Source: Planctomycetota bacterium | Lineage (GTDB): Bacteria; Planctomycetota; Phycisphaerae; UBA1845 | DNA: 64,000 nt | NCBI GenBank assembly: GCA_024280855.1 | Contig: JAJRPG010000085.1 | Coordinates: 47,190 to 111,189, forward strand | Direction: 5' to 3' | In this document: one piece after another, positions 6,238 to 64,000 of the stretch | How positions within the stretch are numbered: position 1 is the stretch's first letter | Layout of the letters: each line of letters begins with the position of its first letter | Notes under the pieces: model-generated | Database searches by the model: none | What the model was told of the DNA's origin: nothing | What the model saw: only the letters and a program-made list of their open reading frames with translations | Program-made: the position numbers and the translations under genes

Positions 6238-6293
6238 AACCACGAAGAATTGGTAACACCGGCAAGAATGGCCGGGGAAAAATGGAGATAGCT

Positions 6294-7247: not shown

Positions 7248-7654
7248 AGGCTATCTGGTGACATACTCTAGTCCACTCATGGGGGAGTGGGCTAGCGTGA
7301 TCTTGAGTCTGTCGAGTTTTTTTCGCACTCATCTGTCTGGCTTCCTTTCGATTTCTTCAACCAGCGAAGCGTGTTAAGCTTTTGTGTTAGATCCAACGAT
7401 GAGGAGCAGGAGCGATACAGGCTGCAATTTCAATGGTTGGGGGAGCGCATGTTGCTTTGAGTAGTCACGGATTGGTGTGGACCGGTTGATTATTCAAAGA
7501 CTCGCAGAATATATTTGTTGCACAACAGAACAGTATCCGCACGCCGATGAAACGCGAAGCTGTGAATAAACTTTCAGCGGGTTAGGTTTTTACGAGATTC
7601 TTACGAGACTTTGTTTTTGTGATTTTCGCTTGCCCCAAAAACCGCACTTTCAAC

Positions 7655-7739
7655 TGGGCAAGGCGGGAGTCGAACCCGCACGTCCCTTTCAGGACAGGGG
7701 ATTTTAAGTCCCCGGCGTCTGCCATTCCGCCACTTGCCC
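7655..7739 (-). tRNA. tRNA-Leu (anticodon UAA), type II with long variable arm; CCA not encoded
   Basis: Reverse complement is GGGCAAGTGGCGGAATGGCAGACGCCGGGGACTTAAAATCCCCTGTCCTGAAAGGGACGTGCGGGTTCGACTCCCGCCTTGCCCA. It folds as a cloverleaf with a 7-bp acceptor, a GGGGA/TCCCC anticodon stem around loop CTTAAAA, and a GCGGG-TTCGACT-CCCGC T arm. Confidence 0.95.
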
Positions 7740-47764: not shown

Positions 47765-48250
47765 GTGAAACAGAAAGTGCAAATACCTTTGCGAAGCGCC
47801 CTCATGCGTGGATTTACTCTTGTAGAATTGGTATGCGTGGTTGTCATTATTGGCATGATGGCCACTATCGCAGTCCCAAGGTTTGGCAATTCCATTGCGT
47901 TGCATCGAATTGAATCGGCCGGCAGGCGTATCGTGGTGGACCTTGCGCTTGCACAATCACTGGCCAAAACTACAAACAAAAGTATCAAAGTTAAGTTTGA
48001 TGTTGCTTCAAATTCGTACATTTTGAGTAAAATACCACACCCTGACCATCCAAGTCGCGAATACGAAACATTTCTACAAGAGGAACCTTACGTCGCCACC
48101 ATTGAATCCGTAGATTTTGGGGGAGGCAACGACATTAAATTCGATGTGTTTGGTGTTCCAGATAATGGTGGATCGATTGTCATCCGTGTGGGAAATAGAG
48201 TTCGAACAATTTCGGTTGACGCAGACACGGGGAAGGCCAGTGTGCTATGA
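47765..48250 (+). CDS. Prepilin-type minor pseudopilin, GspH/FimT-like
   Basis: The leader ends RG|FTLVELVCVVVIIGMMATIAVPRF (class III signal with Glu+5). 161 aa. ATGA overlap with the next gene. Confidence 0.75.
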   Translation: MKQKVQIPLRSALMRGFTLVELVCVVVIIGMMATIAVPRFGNSIALHRIESAGRRIVVDLALAQSLAKTTNKSIKVKFDVASNSYILSKIPHPDHPSREYETFLQEEPYVATIESVDFGGGNDIKFDVFGVPDNGGSIVIRVGNRVRTISVDADTGKASVL

Positions 48251-49413
48251 CAACCCTGCGTAAGCATAAGAAGCCACGTCGTCATCCTGTGCGCCGATTA
48301 GGTTTCACGCTCGTTGAGTTAACCATGAGCATGGCTATCATGACCATTCTCATGGGCACTATGACATCTGTCATAGTCGTCGCTAGCCATGCCATTCCCG
48401 ACAGCCAAGATCCCATCACAAAAAAAATAAAAGCCATGGAAATAGTAGATCTGATGGCTAGTGAGATTTTCTATGCAAATGCCATTACGGAGGCATCAGT
48501 AAATTCTGTCACCTTCACTGTCGCAGATCGCGGACACGGCGCCGCTGGGCCGGAAACTATTCGTTATGAATGGTCAGGGACGCCGGGCGATCCACTCACA
48601 CGGCAGTACAACGGCGGAACAGTTACAACAATAATTGATGATGTTCAGCTTTTCACACTGGTCTTCACGGCGAGCACTAAGCCGCTGCAAGGGGCACCGA
48701 AGGTGCTGCTCGTGGTTGGCGACGACGTATCTCTGAACGCCCAGGACCTGGCCAAGCAGGCACTGATCGAATCCTTTGGATTCTCGGTCCAGATAGTCGC
48801 AGCGTCCAGAAGTGTGGCGGAATTCAGCCCTCTCATCGCCAGCCACGACGTCATGTACATCTCAAACCAGATTACCAAGGCCGATATTCTCAACAAGTCC
48901 CTGGATCTTGCGATCGGCATAATCACCGAGAAGCGTAAGCTATACGACGACTTGGGAATCGCAGCGAAACCAAGCTGGGATGATTTGGACAGAGTCCACT
49001 TAATCGACAACACACACGAAATTACATCCCCCTTTGCCATCGGAGAAGTGATCATTTGCGACTCGACCCAGCAACTCAACTACATCACGAAGACCAAACA
49101 CGCCCCTGGGCTTCAAATCCTGGCCGATTGGGCTGGCTGGCCCGAGTTGTCCGTCCTTGACCTTGAAGCCGAGCAGTACGGCGGCGGCACCGCTAAGGGT
49201 CGTCGTGTGCAGCTACCCTGGGGTGACTCAACAAATTTTGACACGAATAGCCTGAACACGGACGGTCTAACCATCATGCGTCGAGCGATTGCCTGGGCAG
49301 CTGCACGTGTTGTGTACACTGGCGCCCGCATCGACTTGCAATTGAACGGTGTTTCAGTGGCTGCCAGATCGCAAGTGTCGATTCTTAACAAACCCAAAGC
49401 GATTGCGCCATGA
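48247..49413 (+). CDS. Prepilin-type pseudopilin (PulJ/PilW-like N-terminal part) fused to an unassigned ~200-aa alpha/beta domain
   Basis: RRLG|FTLVELTMSMAIMTILMG signal. The C-terminal domain (48697..49305) is paralogous to the one in the next gene. ATGA overlaps at both ends. Confidence 0.65.
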   Translation: MTTLRKHKKPRRHPVRRLGFTLVELTMSMAIMTILMGTMTSVIVVASHAIPDSQDPITKKIKAMEIVDLMASEIFYANAITEASVNSVTFTVADRGHGAAGPETIRYEWSGTPGDPLTRQYNGGTVTTIIDDVQLFTLVFTASTKPLQGAPKVLLVVGDDVSLNAQDLAKQALIESFGFSVQIVAASRSVAEFSPLIASHDVMYISNQITKADILNKSLDLAIGIITEKRKLYDDLGIAAKPSWDDLDRVHLIDNTHEITSPFAIGEVIICDSTQQLNYITKTKHAPGLQILADWAGWPELSVLDLEAEQYGGGTAKGRRVQLPWGDSTNFDTNSLNTDGLTIMRRAIAWAAARVVYTGARIDLQLNGVSVAARSQVSILNKPKAIAP

Positions 49414-51035
49414 TGCTTATTAATGCCAGGAGCAATCTTAGTGCTATGCGTCGCCGAGGGCTAACGCTGCTCGATATACTCATCTCCATTCCGCTCGTAG
49501 GCATCGCTCTGGTGGCGGCATTAAACACTGCCGGCGCGTCCAAAGCCTCCCAGTATAAAGTCAACAATATGCGACAGGGCCATTTACTAGCCCAGGATTT
49601 AATGTCAGAAATTCTGCAGCAGGACTTCTATGACTCAATAGATGGATTTTTAAGTTTTGGACAAGAGGGTATTGTACCAATCACGTTGAATCGTAGCCTA
49701 TTCGACGACACGGATGATTACAACTTATGGCAAGCCTCTCCACCACAGTACAAAGATGGAACGGAGATGAGCGATTTGCCAGATTGGCAACGCACAGTTG
49801 ACGTCGCATGGCGAATGCCAGCAGATTTACAACAAATCTCAGCTACAGCTACAACTATTAAACATATTCGAGTGAATGTTTTATACAAAGGTATGGCTGT
49901 TGCCGAAATCGAAGCCTTCAAGACAATAGGTCTACCACCGCTGGAAGCTTGCTGTTTTGCTGGCAGTTTATGTGAGAATTTGCGCAGCGAAGCTTGTACA
50001 TTACAAGGCGGGACCGCGCTTGGGACGAGTACGAATTGCGCTCTTAGCGCATGTCCTGCAGGACCTAAAGTTTTGTTAGTCGTGGTTGATGACACCGCTT
50101 TAACTGCACAAGAATTAGCTCAGAAGGTACTCATTGAATCATGGGACAATAGTGTTGTGCTTATCTCGGCGTCGGCCATGCTCTTCGAATTTGATGCGGC
50201 GGTGGCTGACGCAGACGTGGCATTCATTACTGTGGGGATTACATCAAGCGATCTGGGCACCAAGTTAACCGCCGCCGCAATCGGCGTTGTGAATACGCAT
50301 CCCGAATTACTTTACGACCTCAAGTTTTCATCCGGGGCCGCTTACTATTATGATTTGAGCGCTGGCGTAGTTATAGACAACACTCATCCCATCACATCCA
50401 CTTTCACCAATGGTCCCCTGACCTTTTCGACGACTAATCAATGGTTTGTGGAAAATCAGAACGGCTTAGCTAGTGGTGCTCAGGTTCTAGCAGTACTCAC
50501 TGATTCGACTAGGGCTTCGCTGTTTGTCTTCGAGGCAGGAGCCTCATTGGTGGGAGGCACACCGTCACCAGGTCGTCGAGTTGAATTGCCTTGGGGGTTT
50601 ACAGACTTCGACTTCAGTACACTCACGGCGGATGCACAGACAATTATGAAAAACGCCATAGAATGGGCTGCTGCGGAAAATATTGCAGCGATTGCGGTGT
50701 GTGGTGACGGCACATGCGCGGTGGGTGAGGAATGCAGTTGTGTGGCCGACTGCGGACCGCCAACCGTTTCCGAGATCATTAACTCCACATGCAATGATGG
50801 CAAAGACAACGACTGCGATAACTTAACCGACTGTCAAGAGTTATCATGTTTTCTTGATCCTGCATGCGCGGTGGTATGCGGTAATAATGTTTGTGACAAT
50901 GGTGAGGATTGTAGTAGTTGCGCCGCAGATTGTCCTGGAAAAACTAAGGGGAAGAAACCTAAACGATATTGTTGTGGGAATGGAATTGCTGAATCAGCTG
51001 AGGGCGATGGGAGCATTTGCGATGGAAACTACTAG
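49410..51035 (+). CDS. Atypical pseudopilin (GspI/PilV-like, G|LTLLD with Asp+5) with two Cys-rich modules and the same ~200-aa domain
   Basis: RRRG|LTLLDILISIPLVGIALVAAL. Cys-rich linker (EACCFAGSLCENLRSEACTL...CALSAC). Domain at 50064..50675. 119-aa Cys-rich tail containing NDGKDNDCDNLTDC and CGNNVCDNGEDC. Confidence 0.65.
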   Translation: MMLINARSNLSAMRRRGLTLLDILISIPLVGIALVAALNTAGASKASQYKVNNMRQGHLLAQDLMSEILQQDFYDSIDGFLSFGQEGIVPITLNRSLFDDTDDYNLWQASPPQYKDGTEMSDLPDWQRTVDVAWRMPADLQQISATATTIKHIRVNVLYKGMAVAEIEAFKTIGLPPLEACCFAGSLCENLRSEACTLQGGTALGTSTNCALSACPAGPKVLLVVVDDTALTAQELAQKVLIESWDNSVVLISASAMLFEFDAAVADADVAFITVGITSSDLGTKLTAAAIGVVNTHPELLYDLKFSSGAAYYYDLSAGVVIDNTHPITSTFTNGPLTFSTTNQWFVENQNGLASGAQVLAVLTDSTRASLFVFEAGASLVGGTPSPGRRVELPWGFTDFDFSTLTADAQTIMKNAIEWAAAENIAAIAVCGDGTCAVGEECSCVADCGPPTVSEIINSTCNDGKDNDCDNLTDCQELSCFLDPACAVVCGNNVCDNGEDCSSCAADCPGKTKGKKPKRYCCGNGIAESAEGDGSICDGNY

Positions 51036-51516
51036 ACACCGCGCGGTTCGGTCTGCCACCAGCCTGAATGCGAACAAGTTTCGCCGCCGCGCTGTAGCCT
51101 ATATCTACTTTTTGAGTTCCACGTTACTCGTCTCTGTTATTGGCTTGTCAGCTTTGATGTTCTCACGGATCCAAAGGCGATCGACTCAAGGTAGCAATCA
51201 ATCCATAGTGGCTCGTTTCTACGCTCAATCTGCACTGGAACTTGGCTTTGCACAAATCAACCTGGACTCAGACTGGCGTACAACATTAAGTACTGGTACA
51301 TGGTTCTCAGCTATGCCAATAGGGCAAGGTAGTTATAGCCTTGATGTGTCCATCGTGAAAAACGGTGACGGTAACACCAACAACGACCCCGTCTTACTCA
51401 TTGGCACCGGCATTTGTGGTCAATCAACCCATAAAATAGAAGTAACACTCGTCCCCTTATCTGATAATGGTGGATTAGTGATTTCCGGTGCAGGATGGAA
51501 ACGTAACACAGGTTAG
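51022..51516 (+). CDS. PilX-N/GspK-like minor pseudopilin
   Basis: The ORF 50854..51516 overlaps the previous gene out of frame. ATG 51022 gives a basic leader, a hydrophobic helix (AVAYIYFLSSTLLVSVIGLSALMF) and a RFYAQSALELGFAQI PilX-N-like helix. Confidence 0.55.
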   Translation: METTRHRAVRSATSLNANKFRRRAVAYIYFLSSTLLVSVIGLSALMFSRIQRRSTQGSNQSIVARFYAQSALELGFAQINLDSDWRTTLSTGTWFSAMPIGQGSYSLDVSIVKNGDGNTNNDPVLLIGTGICGQSTHKIEVTLVPLSDNGGLVISGAGWKRNTG

Positions 51517-51553: not shown

Positions 51554-51598
51554 CGGAGCGGGAGGGATTCGAACCCTCGGTACGGTTTTGTAACTCCT
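51554..51598 (-). pseudogene. Orphan tRNA 3' fragment (T arm plus 3' acceptor strand)
   Basis: The reverse complement contains GAGGG-TTCGAAT-CCCTC followed by CCGCTCCG. No complementary 5' acceptor (GGAGCGG) occurs within 200 nt, so this is not an intact tRNA. Confidence 0.5.
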
Positions 51599-51993: not shown

Positions 51994-53067
51994 TCAGGAG
52001 CAGCGATGACTCTTGCGACTATGGAAGGCTCCCATCACGGTGTTGGGCACATTATCCGGCGCCACAACGTGCTGGACCGCTCCGAGCTCGGCCGCGACCT
52101 TGGGCATGCCGTAGACGACGCAAGACTCGCGACTTTGAGCGATCGTCACTGCGCCTTGCTCATTCATATTCAGCAACCCTTTGGCTCCGTCTGCACCCAT
52201 GCCTGTCAATAGTACACCCGCAGCACAAGACCCCACGGTCTTAGCCACCGAATCGAATAACACGTCAACGCTAGGGCAATGCCGATTCACCAATTCGTCT
52301 GTACCGTAGGTGATACATAACTGGTGTCCTATACGTGTTACGCTCATTTGAATTTCACCGCGTGCTACAACAGCATGCCCGGGCTTGAGTAAATCCCCAT
52401 CGACCGCCTCGGTAACCGTCATGGCACTGAATTGATTCAAACGTTCCGCAAAAGACTTCGTGAACCCTGCAGGCATATGTTGTACGATCACAACTGGAGG
52501 AAAATCTGCTGGGACACAGGACAACACGGCTTTGATGGCTTCCGTACCGCCGGTAGACGCACCGATCGCAACAAGATAATTACTAGGATCAAGCCCCAAG
52601 GAGCGAGGTGATCGTCGACTCATAACTGTCGAAACCGGTACGGCAGGTCTAACCGGCACGGCGATTACCGCAGCGCGAATCTTGTCTGCCAGGTCTTGTC
52701 CTAGCCGCCTCAAGGCCTGGCTGCCTCCCGAGACCGGCTTGGCTACAAAGTCGATGGCCCCGAGTTCAATAGCTGCTAGGGCAGCCTGGCTATTGGTTGT
52801 CGCGACACCACTACACATGATTACGGGAACAGGATAGTGTTTTTGGAGTTTTCGAAGAAACGTCAACCCGTCCATCCTGGGCATCTCTATGTCGAGAATG
52901 ATGACATCTGGCTGGTATTCGATGATTAATTCGCGAGCCTCGTAAGGATCCTTGGCCATGCCGATGACGATGACATCTGGATCATCGGAGAGCACGCGCG
53001 AGAGTACCGCACGTACGGTCGGAGAGTCATCTACGATGAGCACCTTGATCCGTTTAATACCGTTCAC
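51994..53067 (-). CDS. cheB: Chemotaxis response regulator protein-glutamate methylesterase
   Basis: Receiver domain (VLIVDDS...DIEMPRMDG). Methylesterase domain (GASTGG, catalytic His and Asp context). Confidence 0.95.
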   Translation of the reverse strand: MNGIKRIKVLIVDDSPTVRAVLSRVLSDDPDVIVIGMAKDPYEARELIIEYQPDVIILDIEMPRMDGLTFLRKLQKHYPVPVIMCSGVATTNSQAALAAIELGAIDFVAKPVSGGSQALRRLGQDLADKIRAAVIAVPVRPAVPVSTVMSRRSPRSLGLDPSNYLVAIGASTGGTEAIKAVLSCVPADFPPVVIVQHMPAGFTKSFAERLNQFSAMTVTEAVDGDLLKPGHAVVARGEIQMSVTRIGHQLCITYGTDELVNRHCPSVDVLFDSVAKTVGSCAAGVLLTGMGADGAKGLLNMNEQGAVTIAQSRESCVVYGMPKVAAELGAVQHVVAPDNVPNTVMGAFHSRKSHRCS

Positions 53068-53136
53068 GCCACGATCCCTTTTGCATGTGTAACGCCTGCC
53101 AGGTCGATGGTATTCGATTTCAATAGGACACCCATC

Positions 53137-53985
53137 TCAATCCTTTCTGTAGATCGTCGGTGCAACGTATGTTAGTGAGTGCTTGATTCTGTTGAGGCTC
53201 TCAGAGTGTCCGATCAATAGGTACCCCCCTCTAATCAGGTTCTTGGCGTATTGTGCGATTAGGGTTTCTTGCGTGGAATTGTCAAAATATATCATGACAT
53301 TGCGGCAAAAAACTAAATGGAATCCGAAGCGAAACGGAAAAACAGGTGTCATCAGGTTAAAGCGCGCGAAGGTAATAATCTCTCGCACATCGGGAACGAC
53401 CTGCAACCTCGGCCCTTCTTTCGAATTCGTCTGACGGAGATATCGCTGGCCAAGAGCTGGCGGTACTGTGCTGACTCGCTGTGGCTCAAAAAGACCAAGC
53501 TTTGCGCGCCGAAGCATTTGCATGGACAGATCGGTCGCGAGAATTTTCGGCTGAATCCGAGGATGTGCCCTTAACGCATCTCGGACGACCATGGCGATCG
53601 AGTAAGGCTCCTCACCACTTGAACAACCAGCGCTCCAAATTCGGAGCGTCGTGTTTTCGGCACACCAAGCAGGGTCATTAGCCCATTGCTCGATAACGGT
53701 CTTAAGGAAATCGAAATGCCCTTCTTCTCTGAAGAGGTGTGTCGTGTTGGTCGAGACAGCATCGAGCAATGTACTCAATTCGCCTCCCGTTTGATCTTTC
53801 ACGACGTGGTCGAAGTACGCTCGATAGGAAGAGAATCCGCCTTGGCGTAGACGTTTCCCAAGTCGCGTTCTTAGAAGCGGCATCTTATCGTCACCGAGAT
53901 CTATACCACTCTCTGCATAAATAAGTTTCCTAAAGAGTTCGTAATCGCCCCGAGTTAAGTCCTCTACGCGTGTTTGTACTAGCAT
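53137..53985 (-). CDS. cheR: Chemotaxis protein methyltransferase
   Basis: The CheR N-terminal helix domain and the SAM-binding motif IWSAGCSSGEEPYSIAM. Confidence 0.95.
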   Translation of the reverse strand: MLVQTRVEDLTRGDYELFRKLIYAESGIDLGDDKMPLLRTRLGKRLRQGGFSSYRAYFDHVVKDQTGGELSTLLDAVSTNTTHLFREEGHFDFLKTVIEQWANDPAWCAENTTLRIWSAGCSSGEEPYSIAMVVRDALRAHPRIQPKILATDLSMQMLRRAKLGLFEPQRVSTVPPALGQRYLRQTNSKEGPRLQVVPDVREIITFARFNLMTPVFPFRFGFHLVFCRNVMIYFDNSTQETLIAQYAKNLIRGGYLLIGHSESLNRIKHSLTYVAPTIYRKD

Positions 53986-54019
53986 GCATATATTCCTATT
54001 CAGTCTGAGTTGACTATGG

Positions 54020-54490
54020 CTACTTCGATACTACACGCGTGTGATGCGACAGTTCCAGCCATTGGCCATTCACCGACACGCGCGTTTTGTTTTCTGACGA
54101 ATCCGTTGAATCAGCAAGATTAGGTGTCGTCGATGTTTCCACGACTTCGGGAATCGTAAGATGGAACACATCCTCCACACCATACGCAGCCGTGATGTAT
54201 TGACCACACACCACGTTCATAAACTCCTTAATGGCATCGATTGATTCCTGCTCATTAGCCCGATCGGTTGACTCTAATCCCAGCATGTTAGCCGCCAGTT
54301 GATCTGCGAAGCTCCAAGGGCATGTGAGCCGCAATAAGCCATCTGTAGATCCTTCGTAGCCAATTGTCGTTTTTAGCCAGCACTCGCCTGTGGGGGCATT
54401 GATATCGCCTTCATCGGTGAACATGAATGCGAGTTCGGCGAGGATGTCAGAAAGCACCCGCGTCAACGTTGTTGTCGTCTGGTTCTGCAT
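54020..54490 (-). CDS. CheX/CheC-like chemotaxis phosphatase
   Basis: 156 aa. The DAIKEFMNVVCGQ segment matches the D/E-x2-E-x2-N-x3-G motif of CheC/CheX. Sits in a che operon. The start may be internal, given a 44-nt overlap with cheY. Confidence 0.5.
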   Translation of the reverse strand: MQNQTTTTLTRVLSDILAELAFMFTDEGDINAPTGECWLKTTIGYEGSTDGLLRLTCPWSFADQLAANMLGLESTDRANEQESIDAIKEFMNVVCGQYITAAYGVEDVFHLTIPEVVETSTTPNLADSTDSSENKTRVSVNGQWLELSHHTRVVSK

Positions 54491-54872
54491 ATTGTGTAAC
54501 TCCTAGTAATGGAATGAGCACTTCACGAAGCTGCTCGGGTTGGAACGGCTTGCGGACATATCCAGATACGCCTAACTCGCGTAGCTGGTCAATTCGCTTC
54601 TGACTTCCCTCCGTCGAAGCAATCACGATTGGAATATCTTGAAGTTTGGCGTTTTGCTTCATTCTCGTGAGTAATTGAATGCCATTCATCCGGGGCATAT
54701 TGATATCAACAAGCATGACTGCCACGTCATGCTCGCTGAGCTTGGCGAGTGCTTCAATTCCGTCGGCGGCTTCGTAGATTTTACCCACATCCAGACCAAT
54801 CATTCGAATGGTTCTTTTTACCATAGACCGGATCGTTGCCGAGTCGTCCACGATCAAAATGTCTCTTGTCAT
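54447..54872 (-). CDS. cheY: CheY-like single-domain response regulator
   Basis: ILIVDDSATIR, DINMPRMNG, ASTEG and the K of YVRKPF. ATG 54872 is preferred over the ORF start at 54935. Confidence 0.9.
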   Translation of the reverse strand: MTRDILIVDDSATIRSMVKRTIRMIGLDVGKIYEAADGIEALAKLSEHDVAVMLVDINMPRMNGIQLLTRMKQNAKLQDIPIVIASTEGSQKRIDQLRELGVSGYVRKPFQPEQLREVLIPLLGVTQYAEPDDNNVDAGAF

Positions 54873-54882
54873 CGTCTTGTTC

Positions 54883-55755
54883 CTACTTGTGCTCGTGGCT
54901 CTTCGCGTCCGTGCTATTGAATAGCGACTCCACATGTTGAAGGTCGATTATCGTTTGCGCTCCGATGCTTTCCAGGTCATTTATGCCCAGCTTGCGACGC
55001 TCTAATACTTTCGTGTCGGCGCGGGCGTATAAACCATCCTCACCAATCCCGATTCCCAGTAGCAGACACACGCAATTGGCAAGATAAACAGCATCTACAA
55101 GTGGATCAGATGGATCTATCGAAGTTGGATCGTGGTGAAAACGAATACACCGAATGATCGCCGGAGGTAACTTCCATTTTTCGGCGATCATGCCCCCCAC
55201 TTCTTCATGAGAGAACCCGAGGACTTGGTGTTCAGCCTCAACGAATGACATACGTTCATCACTGACACGCCGGACAATCTCCGCGAAATCCGTCGCTACA
55301 TATTCGTTGAGTATCACTTTCCCGATGTCATGGAGCAACCCGGCGGTGAACGCGAGACCAGCATCCGGAAGTCGGAGCCGCTGCGCGAAAAGGGATGAAG
55401 CCAGTGCCACCGCAACCGAATGTTTCCACAGCATGCCCGGTTCCAAACCGTAACCTGGTTGTTCAGAATTTAGCATATTGTTTGTGTGAACAGACATCAC
55501 CAACTGCAGTACCTTGGTGGTGCCAAGGAATAGCATGGCATCATTTAGTGATGTAACTTTTCCAGACAAACCAAAAAAGGACGAGTTACAAAGCCTGAGT
55601 ACCTGCCCCGTGACAACTTGATCGTACTTTATCGCATCGACGATGTGGTCTAGCGTACTGCGCGGATCACCCATAACAGCCATGAGTTTTAGCGCTGTAT
55701 CCGGGAGGGGTTCAAGAGCCCCAACACGATCTACAATATCTTTCACACTGTTCAT
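54883..55755 (-). CDS. HDOD domain signalling protein
   Basis: LEPLPDTALKLMAVMGDPRSTLDHIVDAIKYDQVVTGQVLRLCNSSFFG and an HD-like GLLHDIGK. Confidence 0.85.
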   Translation of the reverse strand: MNSVKDIVDRVGALEPLPDTALKLMAVMGDPRSTLDHIVDAIKYDQVVTGQVLRLCNSSFFGLSGKVTSLNDAMLFLGTTKVLQLVMSVHTNNMLNSEQPGYGLEPGMLWKHSVAVALASSLFAQRLRLPDAGLAFTAGLLHDIGKVILNEYVATDFAEIVRRVSDERMSFVEAEHQVLGFSHEEVGGMIAEKWKLPPAIIRCIRFHHDPTSIDPSDPLVDAVYLANCVCLLLGIGIGEDGLYARADTKVLERRKLGINDLESIGAQTIIDLQHVESLFNSTDAKSHEHK

Positions 55756-56228
55756 AGCTCAGTCTCGCGTCCATGGCTCTTGATAGTGAAGCGCCCGGTG
55801 GCCACATCCAATCGCACAGTACGGGCAGTCGATCCGCCAACGTCCTCCGCATCTATCAACACACCATTTTTCCAAAATATCTTCCGAAGCATGATGTAAT
55901 TTCGCTTGCCGATATTGAATGTTCCACTGTCATCCAAGAGTTGTGATCCACCAGCAATTTTCACGATAAGGTTTTTCTTTCCAGCACCCAATTCATATGT
56001 GGCGCGAAATAGGGCCGGGATACCCGTGTCGGCGAACATCGCAGGTCTTGATTTCGCCTTATCCGGAGAAAGAGCTGATTCAGGCAACATATAGTGAAGC
56101 AATCCGCCAACGCGGACGTTCGGATCCCATATGGCTACACCGATACAACTCCCTAACGAGTACGTCACCAGAGTGGCTCGCGGGTCATTGGCAACCTGAA
56201 AATCTGCGATGTCAACTACTTGATCCAT
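55752..56228 (-). CDS. cheD: Chemoreceptor glutamine deamidase
   Basis: SLGSCIGVAIWDP with the catalytic Cys, and a GLLHYMLP motif. ATG 56228 has an AGGAAG RBS; the ORF opens at 56273. Confidence 0.9.
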   Translation of the reverse strand: MDQVVDIADFQVANDPRATLVTYSLGSCIGVAIWDPNVRVGGLLHYMLPESALSPDKAKSRPAMFADTGIPALFRATYELGAGKKNLIVKIAGGSQLLDDSGTFNIGKRNYIMLRKIFWKNGVLIDAEDVGGSTARTVRLDVATGRFTIKSHGRETEL

Positions 56229-57729
56229 CGCTCTTCCTATCCCCTGTTTTAATGGGTTCGGCACTTTCCCCAAGCTTTGTTACGGGCGCATAGTTGCTCG
56301 ACAAAACACTGATGGCCCCAGACAGCTGGTTAACAGCAACAAATTCGGTCACGTTTTTGACTTTGCGTTTCTCAATTCTTACCGGCCCATGCATCTTCTG
56401 TTGGAACGACGTGCTACGGCGTCCGATTCTGATTGAGACTCCTTCATGTATTAATTTCGACACCAGAACATATGGAATTCCTCGAGCGCGAGCCTCCTGA
56501 AGCATAGTCATGCATTCGCGTTCGGCTTCGTCGGCTTCGGTTTCTATTGTATCCGCCTGATATGTAAGCTCCGTCACTTGTTCCTTTTGGTCCGCGGAAA
56601 GGCGTTTTAAGTCTGCGATCATAGGCTGTACAGATCGTCGAATTCGTTCTGCGTCCTCCTTTTGGACCTTTAGGTTTTCACGAATTCGCTCGGCTTTTTC
56701 GATCACATCGGGATGAATACCGACGGCAATTTCGGTCTTAACATTGGCGTCACTTCCAAGTGTACCCGCCATGACTCCGTCTCGCGCATAAATCCGACCG
56801 CCAATAACTATGCCGTGTTCCACCAAGAGTTTTCCGTCGCAATGCACATGACTGTTCATCAATTCGCTACATATCTTCACATCGCCATCAGCAAGAAGGT
56901 CCGCAGCGTCACAAAACCTTGCCACAATATCCCGGCCGGACTTCACTACATTTCTACCCTTTTGAAGGATTCCACCTCGCACCAAAACATCTCCATGACT
57001 TTCGACCGTGGCCATCTCTATCGCACCACCTATCGTGATTGATCGCTTCGATTTGACTTCAAAACCATCGTGAACCGTCCCGTGAATCTGAATATCCACA
57101 GGGGAATCGATGCACCCAGTCTTGAAATCTACGTCGTTGGAAACGGTAAGGACTTCACTAATGGAAATCAGGTTGCCGGAAAATTCGACTTGTCCAGGTT
57201 CATTGGCGAGCAGAGCCGCAGCGTTCTTCTTGCTCCTCAGAATGCTCTTGTCGAGTACAATGTTCGTAGGCTTGCGTAAGGGCGTGAGCGTCTTACCGAA
57301 GACGTCAATACCATCCACGCCCGGAATCGATGCCACAAGGAATCCGATTAGCTCTCCAGCATGGACAAAGTGAATCGAGTTATAATTGTAGTAGCTGACA
57401 GACGCATCGCCTTGCCAGTCCTTCTCTTTCTTAAGGAACGACTCCTGCCGCTGAAATGCTTCGCCCACGCATTCCACGGCTGGTCGTCCCTCGGCAATAA
57501 GAAACCGCTCCGACCTCTCCTCGACCTTGTTCGCTTGAGCCAAAATTTCCGGAATCCTTTGTGTAACAGACTCGCTAATGTCGATCTTGCCTTCTTTGAG
57601 AACGCAAACAATTTCCTTTAAGGTGAACGGCGACGGATCATCGGGGTTCAATAGACAAATCCACGCTTGAAGACAATCACTTGACACCTCAATCGCCACT
57701 CTATGACCAGTTGTTGTAACAGCCATCAT
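56212..57729 (-). CDS. DUF342 / FapA-like protein
   Basis: 505 aa. Central beta-helix repeats (VDIQIHGTVHDGFEVKS..ITIGGAIEMATVESHGDVLVRGGI...) followed by a C-terminal coiled coil. Confidence 0.78.
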   Translation of the reverse strand: MMAVTTTGHRVAIEVSSDCLQAWICLLNPDDPSPFTLKEIVCVLKEGKIDISESVTQRIPEILAQANKVEERSERFLIAEGRPAVECVGEAFQRQESFLKKEKDWQGDASVSYYNYNSIHFVHAGELIGFLVASIPGVDGIDVFGKTLTPLRKPTNIVLDKSILRSKKNAAALLANEPGQVEFSGNLISISEVLTVSNDVDFKTGCIDSPVDIQIHGTVHDGFEVKSKRSITIGGAIEMATVESHGDVLVRGGILQKGRNVVKSGRDIVARFCDAADLLADGDVKICSELMNSHVHCDGKLLVEHGIVIGGRIYARDGVMAGTLGSDANVKTEIAVGIHPDVIEKAERIRENLKVQKEDAERIRRSVQPMIADLKRLSADQKEQVTELTYQADTIETEADEAERECMTMLQEARARGIPYVLVSKLIHEGVSIRIGRRSTSFQQKMHGPVRIEKRKVKNVTEFVAVNQLSGAISVLSSNYAPVTKLGESAEPIKTGDRKSDGSSS

Positions 57730-57747
57730 CGGTACTCGTTTCTATGT

Positions 57748-58404
57748 TTATTGCGGACCGCAGCGCGGGTCTGCGGAATCAACACCCAATTCAATAAAAT
57801 GGGGCGTAGATGCTGAAAACGAACAAGGGCAGTCGCCTGGCCCTTCGCTGAGATCGAAGTCGAGATTAGCCCGTTGCGCTTTTCGAAACGCGCAGTGCTC
57901 GCTGGAATTGGCGCTGGTACATTCACGCACATCAAGTGCCCAACACTCCGCACAAGTGATCCCGAACCCCGCCGAGTCCGCCACCAACTCATACGCCAGT
58001 TTTTCGAGCATTGTCGCAGCGATTTCTTGCTGATCTTTATCGAGCTGCGCGACCGACCGCTCGATACGGTCTCGTTGAGCTAAGATAATGCGCCGCGTCA
58101 CTTCTATTCCCAAGGGTGCCAGTTCGAAAGCTTCCGTGTCTCCGCTACTCGACTCGGATTCGTGTCTGATGAACCTCAAACGAACCATCTCACGTAAGAC
58201 TTCGTCCATCATCACCGTGTTAACACCAACGAAGGCAGCGATGGCTCCAAGAGTCTTAGTTCCGTGCCAGCGGAGGAGCCGCATCACTGCCAGACCGTTG
58301 GTGGGCAATCCTTCACTTTCCGGGATTTCTCGCTCCAGCACGGCATAAGTTGCCTGGGCAAGCTGCAACAGTGACCGCCAGATTTGTGTATTATTATCAT
58401 GCAT
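57748..58404 (-). CDS. MarR-like winged-helix protein with a C-terminal CX2CX7CX8CAF motif (paralog of 7985..8596)
   Basis: wHTH (LAVMRLLRWHGTKTLGAIAAFVGVNTVMMDEVLREMVRLRFIRHE). Motif CAECWALDVRECTSANSSEHCAF at 57886..57954, plus further Cys (CPC, C near the end). Confidence 0.65.
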   Translation of the reverse strand: MHDNNTQIWRSLLQLAQATYAVLEREIPESEGLPTNGLAVMRLLRWHGTKTLGAIAAFVGVNTVMMDEVLREMVRLRFIRHESESSSGDTEAFELAPLGIEVTRRIILAQRDRIERSVAQLDKDQQEIAATMLEKLAYELVADSAGFGITCAECWALDVRECTSANSSEHCAFRKAQRANLDFDLSEGPGDCPCSFSASTPHFIELGVDSADPRCGPQ

Positions 58405-58480
58405 GGATTCACCTTGTTATATATCTACTGCCTTTTTATTTGGCCACGTTGCCCTATCTCGGTCGGTTCTACTGCATGTA

Positions 58481-59005
58481 TTATTGATCAACATCTGCGC
58501 CAATCTCAACCAGCTGTTCCGATGAAATAATTCTATCAATGTCTAGAAGAATTTTAACGCTTCCTTCTACCTTCCCCATGCCAAGAAAATAGCTGGAATC
58601 AACGGAGGCTCCGAGATCGGGAGGGTCTTCTATCTGATTATCATGAATGCTGTATACCTCTTGAACAGTATCAACGATCACACCCATCAGAACTCCGACA
58701 TTGATGACGATGATGCATGTCTTGTCGTTGTATTCCATTAAAGGCAAATTGAATTTAGATCGAAGGTCAATGACGGGGATCACTTTGCCGCGAAGATTAA
58801 CTACGCCTCGTACAAAGCTCGGTGTCTGTGGCACTATTGTAATGTCCAGGATTCCGATGATTTCGCGGACTTTGAGAATATCGAAACCGTATTCTTCCCC
58901 GGCCAATAGAAAGGTCAGGTACTTGGTATCCAATCCCGTTGTTGAATCTGAACAGTGATCGCTTACCGCATTTTGCTTGTTCGAAATTGTCGTAGTAGCT
59001 TCCAT
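58481..59005 (-). CDS. cheW: Chemotaxis coupling protein CheW
   Basis: FLLAGEEYGFDILKVREI, VVNLRGKVIPVIDLR and GVIVDTV motifs. AGGAG RBS. Confidence 0.9.
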   Translation of the reverse strand: MEATTTISNKQNAVSDHCSDSTTGLDTKYLTFLLAGEEYGFDILKVREIIGILDITIVPQTPSFVRGVVNLRGKVIPVIDLRSKFNLPLMEYNDKTCIIVINVGVLMGVIVDTVQEVYSIHDNQIEDPPDLGASVDSSYFLGMGKVEGSVKILLDIDRIISSEQLVEIGADVDQ

Positions 59006-59017
59006 CGTTTCGAACTC

Positions 59018-59992
59018 CTAAGTAAGTTGCATCGCATTTGTATCATGGGCAGCCATCGGGCTTTCGCCACACAAGACAGGATCAATCGGACTACCATCCG
59101 ATGACATGGCTAATGGATTAGATCTTGATCCGCATGCTGAAATCTGGCTATCTCGATAAGCAAGGGAGATTCCGAGAACGTCCAAAATTAGTCCGACTCG
59201 CCCATCGCCAAGGATGGCCGCCCCGGAAATTCCGCGAAGACCTTCGAACCGTTCACCGAGCGACTTAATGACAACTTGCTGCTGTCCGAGCAACTCATCT
59301 ACGACAAGCCCGATCTCTCCACTTGCGTATTGGGCAATCACTACCATCGCATTACATGGATCAACGTACTCGCCGAGCTGGAACAACGGCCCTAATGGAA
59401 CGAGCGGAATCAGACGACCCCGAACATTGAGTACGGCACCAGAGTGCTGCACAGTCGTGATCTGTCCCGGCTTGGGACGCAGCGCCTGCTCAACCGCGAT
59501 GGTTTGGATGATGAAGCGTTCCGAACCAACTCGCAGGAGCATGCCATCAATGATAGCCAGCGTCAGCGGAAGGCGAATCGAAAACGTACTCCCTTTGCCG
59601 AGGGTCGATACGATGTCACATTTCCCTCTCAGGTTCTCTATATTTCGCCGAACTACATCCATGCCTACCCCGCGCCCGGATACGCCAGTCACGACCTCAG
59701 CAGTCGAGAACCCGGGCGCGAATATGAGGTTGTATGCTTGCTCGTCGGAGAGACGCTCACCCGGTTGCACGATGCCCTTCTCAATCGCCTTCTTGATGAG
59801 TGCGTTAGGGTCGAGTCCTTTCCCGTCATCGGTAATTTCAACAACTATGTTACCGCCACTATGAAATGCGGAGAGCGTCACATTTCCCGAATCCGACTTT
59901 CCTGCTGCACGCCGCGCATCGAGTGGCTCGATGCCATGATCCACAGCGTTCCGAACCATATGCACAAGCGGATCGCCGATCTGCTGAATCAC
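59018..59992 (-). CDS. cheA: CheA histidine kinase, C-terminal fragment (P4 HATPase and P5 CheW-like domains)
   Basis: N box HMVRNAVDHGIE, G1 DDGKGLD, G2 GVSGRGVGMD and a CheW-like tail. Separated from the N-terminal fragment by a frameshift at a T5/A5 run (60039..60043). Confidence 0.85.
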   Translation of the reverse strand: MIQQIGDPLVHMVRNAVDHGIEPLDARRAAGKSDSGNVTLSAFHSGGNIVVEITDDGKGLDPNALIKKAIEKGIVQPGERLSDEQAYNLIFAPGFSTAEVVTGVSGRGVGMDVVRRNIENLRGKCDIVSTLGKGSTFSIRLPLTLAIIDGMLLRVGSERFIIQTIAVEQALRPKPGQITTVQHSGAVLNVRGRLIPLVPLGPLFQLGEYVDPCNAMVVIAQYASGEIGLVVDELLGQQQVVIKSLGERFEGLRGISGAAILGDGRVGLILDVLGISLAYRDSQISACGSRSNPLAMSSDGSPIDPVLCGESPMAAHDTNAMQLT

Positions 59993-60033
59993 GTTCTTGT
60001 CGAGCTCGGTATCTTCACCAGTAATCGTAAGCT

Positions 60034-61470
60034 CTACGTTTTTCCAACTTTTCGTGAGACATCACGAACAAGGCGAGCCATCTTTTGAAACGTAGGTCCA
60101 ATGGGAATCATGCGCATCGCCATGGCAGCATCCTGAACGTCTCGGACGATTTTCGTTGCCTGCGCAACATCTTTTGAGAGCTTCGGAGCCATGCTGAGTT
60201 GCGAACTCGCACTAACTTGTGTCTGAGCAATCACAAGCTCGCCGACCATGTCAATCAACGAATCAAGCTTTCTCGTGTCAATGCGTACAGATTGTTCACC
60301 GCCTCCATTTCCTATTTTGGTTGTCGTCTCAGGCTTGGTCTTGCTTTGAGGTCGTAGGGCCTGGCTAATTTGTTTGGCGCTGGCCGCCCCAATTTCGATT
60401 AGCGTCTCACCAACTTTTTTCGGATCGGATTCACGATCCTGCTTGGCCACTGCATAGTCCACCACTTCTTGAGGCACCGCGCCCTGCTCCACCAGGTTTT
60501 CTCCAACCGTCTGTTGCGAGCCTCCGGTATTAGGCACGATACCAACAGGTTCGATCCTACCTGCGACGATGTCACGGAGTTTGGCAATCATGTTTTCAAT
60601 CGGAGGTTGTGGAACTGATTCACTCGTCGGATCACTGAGGTACTCACGAATGCTTGCAAACTGCACCTTTATAATATCCACGACTTCAAAAATCAGATCG
60701 ATTAGCCCCGCCGTCACCTTGCGTGTTCCCTTGCGAGCTTGATCTAGCAAGGTTTCCGCTTCGTGAGTCAAGCTCACGATGTCACGCAGATTCAGGAAAC
60801 CAGCCGCCCCCTTAATTGTATGGAACGGTCGAAAAAGAGAATCGATGGCTTCGGTGTCATCAGGTGCACGTTCAACATCAAGCAGTGCAGCCTCGATGGA
60901 GTCGAGATGCTCACCAGCCTCTTCAGCGAAACCGGCTACCATTTCCGTTTCGTCGTCTCCGATTATCAATGGTTCTGCAACATACCCTGGCTGAGATTCG
61001 TCTTTTCCTGATGCGGGTTCGTCTTTCGCCGCCACAGTGTCAACTTCGGATTCCGGTACAAGCTCCTCCGGACTAGTCTCCTGGTGTCGGTCAGGCTCAT
61101 CATCTTCAAACACTCGGTCCATACTGGCGGCAACAGTTTCGTCGCTCGGAATACCTGGGGCGGTGGGGCAATCCGGCTCTACGGGAAGGCTCGTCATGGT
61201 ATTTGGTAAACTGGATATCGACGCAACGATCTTACGCATGACTGTACTAGGGTCATCAGCCTTTCCGAGAATCAAGGCCTCCAACGAGCTGACCAAGTCC
61301 TTCGCTTCTTGGCACGACAGCGCATCGATACCGGCCACTACTAGTTCCTCGCACAGCTCATGCATTTTAGCCAAGCCAGGAAGATCGTTTTCGTCGATGC
61401 CATCCAACAGCCCGTGAAGGCTTTCGATGCATGCTGTCGTCGAGAAGCTTTTTGGAATTTCTTCGTTCAT
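60034..61470 (-). CDS. cheA: CheA histidine kinase, N-terminal fragment (P1 Hpt, linker, P3 dimerisation)
   Basis: Hpt H-box FRPFHTIKGAAGFLNL and P3 SVRIDTRKLDSLIDMVGELVIAQ. It ends ...RDVSRKVGKT* exactly where CheA proteins continue into P4. Confidence 0.85.
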   Translation of the reverse strand: MNEEIPKSFSTTACIESLHGLLDGIDENDLPGLAKMHELCEELVVAGIDALSCQEAKDLVSSLEALILGKADDPSTVMRKIVASISSLPNTMTSLPVEPDCPTAPGIPSDETVAASMDRVFEDDEPDRHQETSPEELVPESEVDTVAAKDEPASGKDESQPGYVAEPLIIGDDETEMVAGFAEEAGEHLDSIEAALLDVERAPDDTEAIDSLFRPFHTIKGAAGFLNLRDIVSLTHEAETLLDQARKGTRKVTAGLIDLIFEVVDIIKVQFASIREYLSDPTSESVPQPPIENMIAKLRDIVAGRIEPVGIVPNTGGSQQTVGENLVEQGAVPQEVVDYAVAKQDRESDPKKVGETLIEIGAASAKQISQALRPQSKTKPETTTKIGNGGGEQSVRIDTRKLDSLIDMVGELVIAQTQVSASSQLSMAPKLSKDVAQATKIVRDVQDAAMAMRMIPIGPTFQKMARLVRDVSRKVGKT

Positions 61471-61473
61471 AAA

Positions 61474-61947
61474 TTAGGATCCTCCTTGCGTGACATAGAC
61501 AAGCTTTGAATTGGACGCGCTATCCGAAGCGTCCACATTATGGCAAACAGTCCCATCCAATTCAGCCAATGTTTCGCCAAGCAAGGCATCACGCACGCGT
61601 TCATTCAGTCGTTGCAAACCACGATGTGCGTTACACATGCGTTTGGGATTGCGATTACACGTCCTGGGACGCAGATGTTCGTCCTCTTCCGGTGGATTAA
61701 GTGCGTCCAATACCTCAACCACAGGTATCTCATTGAGCGACTTAGTCACGACATAACCGCCGAAACGCCCACGAATCGAATCAACAAGCCCGGCGTTATT
61801 GAGACTCTGCAGCACCTTGGACGCTTGGTCCCGAGGTATACCCAGAGAAGCAGCCACGACCGGCGCTGAGAGTGGCGTGCCATTCTCTTGACGCTTCAAA
61901 AAGCATAGTGCGTATATTCCATGTACGGCGGTCCGAGAGAACAACAT
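61474..61947 (-). CDS. Rrf2-family transcriptional regulator (second copy in the window)
   Basis: MLFSRTAVHGIYALCFL...ASKVLQSLNNAGLVDSIRGRFGGYVV, and a C-terminal Cys/His-rich part (RTCNRNPKRMCNAHRG). AGGAGG RBS before ATG 61947. Confidence 0.85.
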   Translation of the reverse strand: MLFSRTAVHGIYALCFLKRQENGTPLSAPVVAASLGIPRDQASKVLQSLNNAGLVDSIRGRFGGYVVTKSLNEIPVVEVLDALNPPEEDEHLRPRTCNRNPKRMCNAHRGLQRLNERVRDALLGETLAELDGTVCHNVDASDSASNSKLVYVTQGGS

Positions 61948-62255
61948 TTTAACTCCTCCTTGATACCAAATCACGCCAATTATTCCTTTGCTAATACTGG
62001 CATCGTCTCTTGCCGACACTTGTATTAGTTAATCCGGAATTAAGAACTCCGGTTTCAGGGTTGATAACAGGGAACGTTAATCGGACGCTGTTTATCGAGG
62101 GCGACGTAACGTGGAAGACGCCAATCATCAGTCTTTCGAAATGCCGCCGCTGTGTCATTCCCGCCAGAAGTTCTGCTCGAATCTTCAGGTGGATTAATGT
62201 GGAAGAACGTGCCAAACCAAGGCACACACGAACAAAACCAGAAAGGAACTGCAAC

Positions 62256-64000
62256 ATGTCGCTGTTTAGCAATCGAGGAGTAGGCATAAAGATCGGGCTC
62301 GGGTATGCAACAGTTGCACTCATTCTTGTGGGTGCCGTATCCACCACGATTTGGCAGGTTAGTCGTACTGCGGAGGTCACCAACCGGGTAATCGATCTTC
62401 GTGCCCCTACCGCACAGGCAAGCCTGGGAATGATGAACGGAATGAACCATTCACTAGCAGCTCTACGTGGATGGATCATCCTAGGCAAAGACAAGTTCAA
62501 ACAAGAGCGTGCCATCGCTTGGTCAAAAGAAATTGAACCAGCGCTGGCCACCATGAAAGAGTTCGCAACCAACTGGACAGATCCGCAAAACATTGAACGA
62601 CTGAATGCGATCGAGGCGAAGCTCATTGACTTCAAAAATTTTCAGAAGGAAATCGAGGACATTGCCCAGACTGTTGAAAACACGCCGGCCAAGAAGATTT
62701 TATTTGAACAAGCAGCGCCTCAAGCGCAGATTTTGAGTAAGCAGATTACAAGGATGATCGATCTGGAGGCTCAATACGACAGCACTTCCGCCTTGGAGGC
62801 GACACAGGGCATCACCCGCGCCATGAAGCTAGCTGAGGTCATTACCGAACAAGTCGCTACCGACCGCGCGTATTATGCCAAAAACGTTGTTGCCAAACTC
62901 AAGTCGGAGAATCCAGACTTCCAAGCAGGTGTGGGATATCATGATATAAGCGGCGCGATACCACCACCAGCCACCTTTGTACGTGAAACCTCCGAGGCCC
63001 TGGGCGACAGCGCCGGATATCGATATGAACTACTAAGCGAGTGGAATATCAACAAGGAGAAAGGACTCCATAATAGCTTTGAAACAGAAGCCTGGAAAAG
63101 CCTGTCTCGTAATCCAAATACACCTTATGTCGAGTTCATCTCCACAGGGTCGGGAGTCGAATATCGTTACGCGACTGCAGATATTGCTTCTTCCCAGAGC
63201 TGTGTTTCCTGTCACAACAGCCACACGGACAGTCTCAAAAAGGACTTCAAAATTGGTGACTTGATGGGCATTCTCGTCGTCTCTTCGCTCGTAACCCAGG
63301 ATCAGGAAGTCGGGGAAGTCCTGCTAAACCTTGACGACGACAGCCATACAGTAGGCGGCGTTATCGAAGCATCTCGTAGGCTGTCGAAGGATATGTCCTC
63401 ACGTAAGGCTGTGTTTGGGATGATGGCGGACACTAGGGGAACCCTCGGCTTAGGACTCGGTGCCATACGCGCATTCCTGCTTTCAGGCGAGACAAGATTC
63501 AAACAGGAGTTTGTAAAACTTTGGACCAAGAATACAAAGCGTTTCGGTGATCTAACCGCACATGTAAATATTCTAACACCCGAACAACATGAAGCCTTTA
63601 ACATTTTCGCTGCCGCGCGAAAGAAGTTTGATCCGCTACCACAGAAGATGTTTACCATTCGTGGCGGTGATGACTGGAACTTAGCCAATAGATGGCTTGG
63701 TACTAAAGCTGCGCCTGCTGCGTTTACGATTAAGAAAAACCTTGATGCCATGATCGCTAGCCAGCAGAAACTTATGGCCACCGACATGACCGAGGGAAAA
63801 AGGCTTACAACTGCTCTTATGACAACACAGTGGATCCTACTCGGCGCAGGCATCGCCCTTTGTACGATTCTAGGCATACTCATCACGCGTTCAATCACTA
63901 AGCCGATCAACCAAATAATCGCCGGCCTTAACGAAGGTTCTGATCAGGTCAATGACGCGGCATCGCAGGTTTCCTCGTCTAGTCAACAATCCGCGGAGGG
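62256..64000 (+). CDS. Methyl-accepting chemotaxis protein (5' partial; runs off the window) with a periplasmic c-type-heme Tll0287-like (DUF3365) sensor domain
   Basis: Hand translation from ATG 62256; this gene is not in the ORF track because it is open-ended. TM1 GLGYATVALILVGAV. Helical ligand-binding modules. GYRYELLSEWNIN...EYRYATADIASSQSCVSCHNSH with CxxCH at 63201..63215. TM2 WILLGAGIALCTILGILI. HAMP start ITKPINQIIAGLNEGSDQV. Confidence 0.85.
   Translation, partial: MSLFSNRGVGIKIGLGYATVALILVGAVSTTIWQVSRTAEVTNRVIDLRAPTAQASLGMMNGMNHSLAALRGWIILGKDKFKQERAIAWSKEIEPALATMKEFATNWTDPQNIERLNAIEAKLIDFKNFQKEIEDIAQTVENTPAKKILFEQAAPQAQILSKQITRMIDLEAQYDSTSALEATQGITRAMKLAEVITEQVATDRAYYAKNVVAKLKSENPDFQAGVGYHDISGAIPPPATFVRETSEALGDSAGYRYELLSEWNINKEKGLHNSFETEAWKSLSRNPNTPYVEFISTGSGVEYRYATADIASSQSCVSCHNSHTDSLKKDFKIGDLMGILVVSSLVTQDQEVGEVLLNLDDDSHTVGGVIEASRRLSKDMSSRKAVFGMMADTRGTLGLGLGAIRAFLLSGETRFKQEFVKLWTKNTKRFGDLTAHVNILTPEQHEAFNIFAAARKKFDPLPQKMFTIRGGDDWNLANRWLGTKAAPAAFTIKKNLDAMIASQQKLMATDMTEGKRLTTALMTTQWILLGAGIALCTILGILITRSITKPINQIIAGLNEGSDQVNDAASQVSSSSQQSAE

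Follow-up and report, generated by a model that had tools for sequence, protein, structure and literature searches.

The classification of chemosensory pathways relies mainly on core proteins, whereas new signalling logic tends to come from accessories specific to a lineage. Zinc-thiolate sensing by the CZB module of chemoreceptors such as Helicobacter TlpD provides a precedent in which a Cys–metal site passes redox or oxidant information to the complex controlling CheA, and among transcription regulators RsrR is a redox-sensing [2Fe-2S] member of the Rrf2 family. For receptors with a periplasmic heme, a 2026 preprint (PMC12889525) reclassified the DUF3365/Tll0287-like domain as ‘sCache_heme’, with CXXCH in 99% of members; a representative fused to a signalling module (from P. 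azotoformans), which has no axial Cys, is reported to release bound nitric oxide (NO) slowly and to form no stable complex with O2. The Geobacter receptors GSU0582 and GSU0935 are of the sCache_heme type (PMC12889525; PMC2577667), and FapA/DUF342 proteins form a flagellum-associated family, a member of flagellar superoperons found near che and flagellar genes (PMC11607428). Here we analyse a 64,000-nucleotide stretch (hereafter the window; contig JAJRPG010000085.1, positions 47,190–111,189) from a Planctomycetota bacterium of the class Phycisphaerae (assembly GCA_024280855.1), in which a che gene cluster includes genes for two Cys-rich winged helix-turn-helix (wHTH) proteins, one of the Rrf2 family and one MarR-like with four conserved cysteines (MarR-4Cys), and lies divergent to the gene of a methyl-accepting chemotaxis protein (MCP) with a c-heme-type sensor. 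A search of a paper library returned no account of a MarR or Rrf2 gene within a che operon, no MarR protein with a C-terminal Cys4 site and no described cluster combining HDOD, CheD and CheX.

We read this locus as a self-contained Phycisphaerae chemotaxis-type pathway, most likely for taxis to periplasmic NO or redox conditions, with both wHTH accessories built in, and give this reading a probability of roughly one half. The cluster represents a known signalling system in a form particular to this lineage, and its most interesting element is MarR-4Cys, a previously undescribed component: a protein derived from a transcription factor that sits in one fixed che slot across a class of Planctomycetota and has kept its Cys4 site while it seems to have lost DNA-reading residues. 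Together with its heme-Cache receptor, of a type newly reported to bind NO, the cluster is a concrete candidate system for taxis to NO or redox signals in a phylum that is abundant in the environment and little studied.

The cluster comprises 11 genes, all on the minus strand and, as the first-pass annotation had it, in the order Rrf2–cheA–cheW–MarR-like–DUF342–cheD–HDOD–cheY–cheX–cheR–cheB; every assignment except the MarR-like one is backed by Pfam. Genes were called from an open reading frame (ORF) listing and Pfam scans of the window, with start codons refined from homologues. The Che core is complete by Pfam (MCP; CheA with Hpt, dimerisation, HATPase and CheW-like domains; CheW; CheY; CheR; CheB), the readthrough of CheA requiring a one-nucleotide correction that is taken up below. 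Spacing between neighbouring genes runs from −44 to +76 nucleotides, and this close packing, with the Rrf2 stop 3 nucleotides ahead of the cheA start and a 4-nucleotide overlap of cheD and the HDOD gene, points to an operon-like array. The features are as follows.

62256–64000, plus strand: MCP, cut by the window end with 581 residues seen; identified by Pfam, transmembrane segments and CVSCH
61987–62016, minus strand: conserved 30-nucleotide element TCGGCAAGAGACGATGCCAGTATTAGCAAA, 40 nucleotides upstream of the Rrf2 start; identified by locus comparison
61474–61947, minus strand: Rrf2-family wHTH protein, 157 residues; start at Met25 of the listed ORF, from homologues
60034–61470, minus strand: cheA, N-terminal part (Hpt and dimerisation domains), ending at a premature stop
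59018–59992, minus strand: remaining, C-terminal portion of cheA (HATPase_c and CheW-like P5), shifted to the −1 frame with respect to the preceding portion
58481–59005, minus strand: cheW (Pfam CheW, E 5.6e-36)
57748–58404, minus strand: MarR-4Cys, 218 residues; MarR fold by profile and model, Cys4 motif at 57892–57954
56212–57729, minus strand: DUF342/FapA-family protein, 505 residues (Pfam FapA, E 3.6e-55; FapA_N, E 3e-21)
55752–56228, minus strand: cheD, 158 residues as in locus L001 (Pfam CheD, E 3e-29); likely start Met16 of ORF 55752–56273
54883–55755, minus strand: HDOD-domain protein (Pfam HDOD, E 5e-57); its first 4 nucleotides are shared with the end of cheD
54447–54872, minus strand: cheY, a single REC domain of 141 residues (Pfam Response_reg; best NCBIfam match CheY); start at Met22 of the listed ORF
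54020–54490, minus strand: cheX-like phosphatase (Pfam CheX, 48.5 bits; cut-off 27)
53137–53985, minus strand: cheR (Pfam CheR and CheR_N)
51994–53067, minus strand: cheB, REC and methylesterase (Pfam CheB_methylest, E 1e-62)

Comparable loci, given L numbers here, were found through relatives of the 218-residue MarR-4Cys protein (28 close relatives), their gene order being read by tblastn with the window proteins, and all of those recovered come from Planctomycetota/Phycisphaerae metagenome-assembled genomes (MAGs). The MarR-4Cys slot recurs in nine other distinct loci, at 35–68% identity. Six of them (L001, L002, L004, L006, L007 and L009) share the order cheA–cheW–MarR-4Cys–cheD–HDOD–cheY–cheX–cheR–cheB, with or without a DUF342 gene after MarR-4Cys; L008 has the same synteny minus cheY and cheX, L015 has cheW–MarR-4Cys–cheD–HDOD–cheY (39% identity), and in L016 a MarR-4Cys gene at 35% identity has pgi before it and DUF342 after it. 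MarR-4Cys is present in every che locus examined, directly behind cheW and ahead of cheD or DUF342, and HDOD is conserved across all loci; DUF342 is variable (the window, L006 and L016 only), and the flanks of the cluster differ at every locus. Recurrence in nine other loci shows that the arrangement is not due to chance, and since the position is fixed down to about 35–40% identity, MarR-4Cys is an integral component rather than a recent insertion. The first-pass annotation had raised the possibility that both regulators were recent arrivals; the fixed slot of MarR-4Cys and the che- or MCP-linked clade to which the Rrf2 protein belongs speak against this. A metagenome scan added a single truncated remnant, adjoining selB/selA. 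As a side observation, L008 (Phycisphaerae MAG OFTM303, 2885–7593) carries a weakly globin-like ORF (Pfam Globin, E 2.9e-4) directly after cheB.

The CX2CX7CX8C motif first noticed in MarR-4Cys is real: all 27 homologues keep C151, C154, C162 and C171. Pfam gives no match to the window protein even at E ≤ 1, which leaves it outside PF01047 by gathering score, and no NCBIfam model reaches its threshold; 24 of its 27 relatives match weakly (best E 3e-6). The family profile aligns with the MarR structure 4xrf in the PDB (E 2.4e-5). A first AlphaFold2 model, built from 27 sequences, had a predicted local distance difference test score (pLDDT) below 50 in the Cys region; a second, from a 113-sequence alignment, reached a pLDDT of 85.8 and a predicted template-modelling (TM) score of 0.79. 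The models match MarR structures over about 140 residues (Foldseek, Rv0880, E 6e-6; TM-scores 0.76–0.81), including the ST1710–DNA complex at a TM-score of 0.81. By profile and model, then, MarR-4Cys is a protein of MarR fold.

An exhaustive profile search of representatives clustered at 50% identity yielded 668 relatives (E ≤ 1e-3), a good number of which are plain MarR proteins. CX2CX7CX8-9C occurs in 127 of the 177 top relatives and the exact 7,8 spacing in 94. This outlines a large MarR+CX2CX7CX8C family without a name, covered by neither a Pfam nor an NCBIfam model, in which we found no characterised member. P0046, a distant, basic member, does not lie next to che genes. The window itself encodes a second MarR+CX2CX7CX8C protein (7985–8596, plus strand, 203 residues, ...YCLQCGAHADGRCVLQGGDSGCAF...), which belongs to the basic wider family with a canonical wing and lies 1 kb downstream of an Rrf2/qNor/RIC module; the genome thus has both a presumed DNA-binding form and the che-embedded form. 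Two proteins of the che-type clade, P0036 (401 residues) and P0044 (343 residues), are tandem MarR repeats with the Cys4 site only on the second repeat, an arrangement consistent with the protein acting as a dimer.

The che-embedded clade has departed from the rest of the family in the very region that reads DNA in MarR proteins. We compared 27 che-embedded members with 86 other family members (113 aligned). The 27 are monophyletic in a neighbour-joining tree; the net charge of their wHTH domain is −1.1 vs +6.3 in the wider family, and that of the whole protein −9.0 vs +9.4. The basic pair of the wing is present in 22% vs 99%, the signature LRLLRW in 96% vs 0%, and the start of the recognition helix has changed from S/T-Q to D-E; in a hidden Markov model alignment to a solved MarR, the wing DRR pairs with ‘eds’. 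The che clade has also gained a conserved acidic tail, LDPDLSEGPDDCP. An acidic wHTH and a lost basic wing make classical DNA binding doubtful, and MarR-4Cys has probably kept the dimer scaffold and the Cys4 site and given up classical DNA binding. Its original designation as a DNA-binding protein is not supported for a clade that lacks a basic wing found in 99% of its non-che relatives. Intergenic regions and k-mers across the loci revealed no shared operator beyond the ribosome-binding site and an element linked to the Rrf2 gene.

MarR-4Cys stems from a large MarR family whose members are basic regulators with a Cys4 site at the C-terminus. In the mechanism that we propose, it would most likely be a dimeric cytoplasmic sensor of redox or metal, and not a classical repressor, that works by contacting other proteins, either those of the signalling complex or the FapA-like or HDOD protein. 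What the analysis shows is the gene content, the conserved synteny, the invariant motif, the loss of charge and wing and the MarR fold; metal binding and the partners we infer. The full version of this idea, a dimeric MarR-fold chemosensory accessory off DNA whose Cys4 metal or Fe-S site reports cytoplasmic redox state or NO to CheA, CheW or the receptor, or to the FapA-like or HDOD proteins, is tentative, and we hold it with low confidence. If true, redox would enter the taxis pathway at two points, through heme in the periplasm and through thiolate in the cytoplasm; and if MarR-4Cys acts on the signalling complex, a regulator fold would have been recruited as a redox input to chemotaxis.

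The Rrf2 protein presents a different picture, and the two Cys-rich winged-helix proteins probably do different jobs. It matches PF02082 at 75 bits (cut-off 30) and TIGR00738 at 76.9 bits (cut-off 73.3), its wing RGRxGGY is intact, and its closest solved relatives are RsrR (E 3e-12, the best PDB match) and IscR (E 1e-9). NsrR and IscR equivalog models score 32–38 bits against cut-offs of 182–207. The canonical CX5CX5C Fe-S triad is absent, the loop holding only C97-x7-C105-x2-H108 (encoded at 61624–61659); of the candidate ligands, C15, C97, C105 and H108 do not vary, and H9 and C135 show conservation of at least 90%. The suggestion of an Fe-S cluster in this protein thus loses the canonical triad and keeps the conserved Cys and His residues and the kinship with RsrR and IscR, so that cluster binding is plausible but would be non-canonical. 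The reading of an embedded DNA-binding protein probably holds only for Rrf2.

The gene stands ahead of cheA in the window, L001 and L007, and not in L002, L006 and L009. More distant members of its clade (50–55% identity) lie directly upstream of MCP genes that are paralogues of the window receptor, one of these Rrf2–MCP loci having a Tll0287-type MCP as well, and the five distinct contexts in which the clade was seen all place it beside cheA or an MCP gene. The 30-nucleotide element upstream of the gene is conserved at 27 or more of its 30 positions in the three Rrf2-headed loci (window, L001, L007), is absent elsewhere, and was matched in 0 of 100 shuffles; it is a candidate promoter or operator. 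A sigma-54 promoter reading was dropped, the GG/GC spacing being one base too long. In the proposed scheme Rrf2, with its basic wing and its Cys and His residues kept, would probably repress the operon and the receptor in a metal- or Fe-S-dependent manner, with this element upstream of its own gene as its site of action. In L006 (2127–6821), a 1564-residue hybrid protein, PAS-HisKA-HATPase-Hpt-REC-REC-GAF-HD_5, is encoded directly upstream of cheA, where Rrf2 would be.

The divergent MCP has the periplasmic c-heme sensor that was first attributed to it: a 4HB_MCP_1 match with a Tll0287-like domain (PF11845, 62.3 bits; cut-off 24.1) and CVSCH at residues 316–320 (63201–63215), between the first and second transmembrane segments. 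The layout is a first transmembrane segment, a periplasmic four-helix-bundle module with a nested Tll0287-like/sCache_heme domain, a second transmembrane segment and the start of the signalling domain, and no HAMP domain is detectable. Full-length homologues of about 880 residues are encoded in L002 and L007. The only periplasmic cysteines, in all three proteins, are the two of CXXCH, which makes the window receptor a signalling-type sCache_heme protein without an axial Cys. A redox or NO input is plausible on this basis, the Tll0287-like c-heme without an axial Cys being the architecture with reported NO-sensor behaviour (PMC12889525); that the receptor senses NO is likewise plausible, by analogy with the characterised protein.

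MCP paralogues in L011–L014 lack precisely residues 187–382, the heme domain: those at L011 (10576–12600) and at L013/L014 (from 11725) match residues 1–186 and 383–567 of the window MCP, so that the sCache_heme domain appears as a discrete insertion into a four-helix-bundle sensor. The rough heptad count of the MCP arms is about 19 and 18. In the full-length homologues of L002 (3959–6610) and L007 (minus strand, about 3516–6158), a long linker of low complexity leads to a conserved C-terminus, ...(D/G)LKDF, which may be a variant CheR/CheB tethering peptide. Genes for Alginate_exp-type outer-membrane porins directly adjoin the heme MCP in L002 (2047–3711) and the Rrf2 gene in L013 (8156–9640), and the window has one at 20840–22297 (minus strand), 40 kb off; these placements could be coincidence.

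Put together, the domains present suggest how the pathway is wired: the receptor, with its Tll0287-like heme-c Cache domain, would control CheA via CheW; CheA would phosphorylate the stand-alone CheY and CheX would dephosphorylate it; CheR, CheB and CheD would adapt the receptor; and the output would most likely be the flagellar motor. NO sensing and motor output are the two ends of this chain that we infer. Motor control is favoured by the stand-alone CheY with CheX, the FapA-family protein, a flagellin gene 8 kb from the Rrf2–MCP module of a related Phycisphaerae MAG (L011) and the flagellated state of the cultivated Phycisphaera mikurensis. The same genes leave the transcriptional or non-flagellar output suggested at first without support. 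The window holds no flagellar gene among ORFs of at least 150 residues, as had been reported; at related loci flagellar genes are likewise not adjacent.

Of the readings that compete with ours, one would keep the chemotaxis standard and make both wHTH proteins ordinary transcription factors that act on che and MCP promoters according to Fe-S or thiol status. Both proteins do have wHTH folds, the wider MarR+Cys4 family resembles bona fide basic regulators, the che clade shows strong conservation in its HTH segment, and the MarR-4Cys gene is closely preceded by a pair of promoter-like hexamers (58509–58480). Against it stand the lost basic pair of the wing and the acidic start of the recognition helix in that clade; across the loci, the interval between cheW and MarR-4Cys and the upstream intergenic regions hold no conserved operator-like sequence except the one tied to Rrf2, and promoter-like sites are not enriched over shuffles. 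We regard this account as possible, though on the unlikely side. A pathway of the ‘alternative cellular function’ kind, with gene expression or a second messenger as its output and MarR-4Cys and/or HDOD as the effector of phosphorylated CheY, would suit the lack of flagellar genes adjoining any locus, the HDOD protein always encoded beside cheY, the HD-GYP-type HD_5 domain of the hybrid kinase directly upstream in L006, and L008, which has neither cheY nor cheX. The response regulator is nevertheless a stand-alone CheY, by its best NCBIfam match, with a CheX phosphatase, MarR-4Cys has no receiver domain, and the FapA-family protein points to the flagellar pole while a related MAG has flagellin; such an output seems quite improbable.

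The pathway might also be dead. The first-pass annotation overlooked that cheA is interrupted: a premature stop at 60034–60036 follows a one-nucleotide deletion in an A-run (A5 vs A6), the downstream part lying in another frame, and the window letters at 60034–60045, GGAAAAACGTAG, yield ...RKVGKT*. Adding one A restores ...RKVGKNVELTITGEDTELDK, which is in frame in seven of seven homologues. If the frameshift is genuine, the cluster would be decaying in this genome. A single-base homopolymer change is, however, a typical assembly error, both halves of cheA remain 61–85% identical to intact homologues (the C-terminal part 70–85%), and no other gene of the cluster is broken; a −1 ribosomal slip on GGAAAAAC would likewise restore the frame. 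An assembly error in the homopolymer is the simplest explanation of the break, and decay is in our view improbable.

Several observations nonetheless weigh against the pathway of NO or redox taxis that we favour, or against the off-DNA role of MarR-4Cys within it. All genomes involved are uncultured MAGs, cheA is frameshifted in this window, and flagellar genes adjoin the cluster neither in the window nor in the flanks of L001, L002 and L006–L009. The evidence of NO sensing comes from one Pseudomonas protein in a preprint, outside this clade. The Rrf2 gene, absent from L002, L006 and L009, is dispensable for the module. The case for loss of DNA binding consists of charge and motif loss, and the segment LRLLRWHGxKT is highly conserved, with R45 and K50 kept, so that an altered DNA specificity is possible; the Cys4 site could, moreover, be a purely structural zinc site.

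At 3.4–7.0 kb the window does carry the Rrf2/qNor/RIC module that had been noticed earlier; the tie to the che cluster which that implied has nothing specific to support it, the two being 50 kb apart. Of the redox- or NO-responsive pathway as first proposed, the input thus remains plausible and backed by the preprint, and the transcriptional output and the qNor connection fall away. The NsrR-like Rrf2 beside qNor (3402–3857, minus strand) also has no CX5CX5C; its C-x11-C-x2-H and C-terminal Cys resemble the pattern of the che-linked Rrf2, at an identity of just about 31%. A tRNA-Leu(TAA) gene (7655–7739, minus strand) separates the second MarR+Cys4 gene from that of RIC.

Sigma-70 promoter-like and terminator-like sites showed no enrichment over shuffles, and Rfam gave no match within the cluster. 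About 400 bp past cheB, at 51554–51590, is an isolated 3' fragment resembling that of a transfer RNA (tRNA) or transfer-messenger RNA (T-arm and acceptor, GGGATTCGAACCC core), in which ARAGORN calls no tRNA and Rfam matches are sub-threshold only; it may be an old integration boundary. In L002, genes for a phage-type integrase and for replication follow cheB. A short ORF at 51773 resembles, by eye, the N-terminus of an IS3 OrfA but has no Pfam match. Convergent with cheB is a run of four genes (47765–51516, plus strand), two of which encode N-terminal prepilin-type methylation motifs (pseudopilin/GspH-like), the other two matching no family with support; none of the four is a motor gene of a motility pilus.

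Compared with known systems, the locus is closest in gene content to the CheD plus CheC/CheX clusters of the Bacillus, Thermotoga and spirochaete type, with which it shares a single operon for CheA, CheW, a stand-alone CheY, CheX, CheD, CheR and CheB. A further likeness is that a FapA/DUF342 gene stands near che or flagellar genes (PMC11607428); the differences are that no flagellar genes adjoin the cluster here and that its operon has an HDOD protein and two Cys-rich wHTH proteins as fixed members. The receptor is like other sCache_heme sensors in having a periplasmic c-heme CXXCH fused to an MCP and, like the NO-binding signalling-type representative, has no axial Cys; it differs in the nesting of the heme domain within a four-helix-bundle module, in having heme-less paralogues and in lacking HAMP. 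With RsrR, IscR and NsrR the Rrf2 protein shares its fold and the wing RGRxGGY, and its C105-x2-H108 matches C104-x2-H107 of IscR, whereas its C-x7-C-x2-H spacing, its equivalog scores far under the cut-offs and its translational coupling to cheA set it apart. CZB offers a precedent for a Cys–metal redox input to the CheA complex, but it is a four-helix bundle fused to the receptor, whereas in this cluster a separate MarR-fold protein, not homologous to CZB, bears the Cys4 site. MarR-4Cys, finally, shares with the MarR repressors ST1710, Rv0880 and OhrR a dimeric wHTH fold over about 140 residues, and the che clade differs from them in its acidic wHTH, its lack of a basic wing, its added invariant Cys4 module and its acidic tail.

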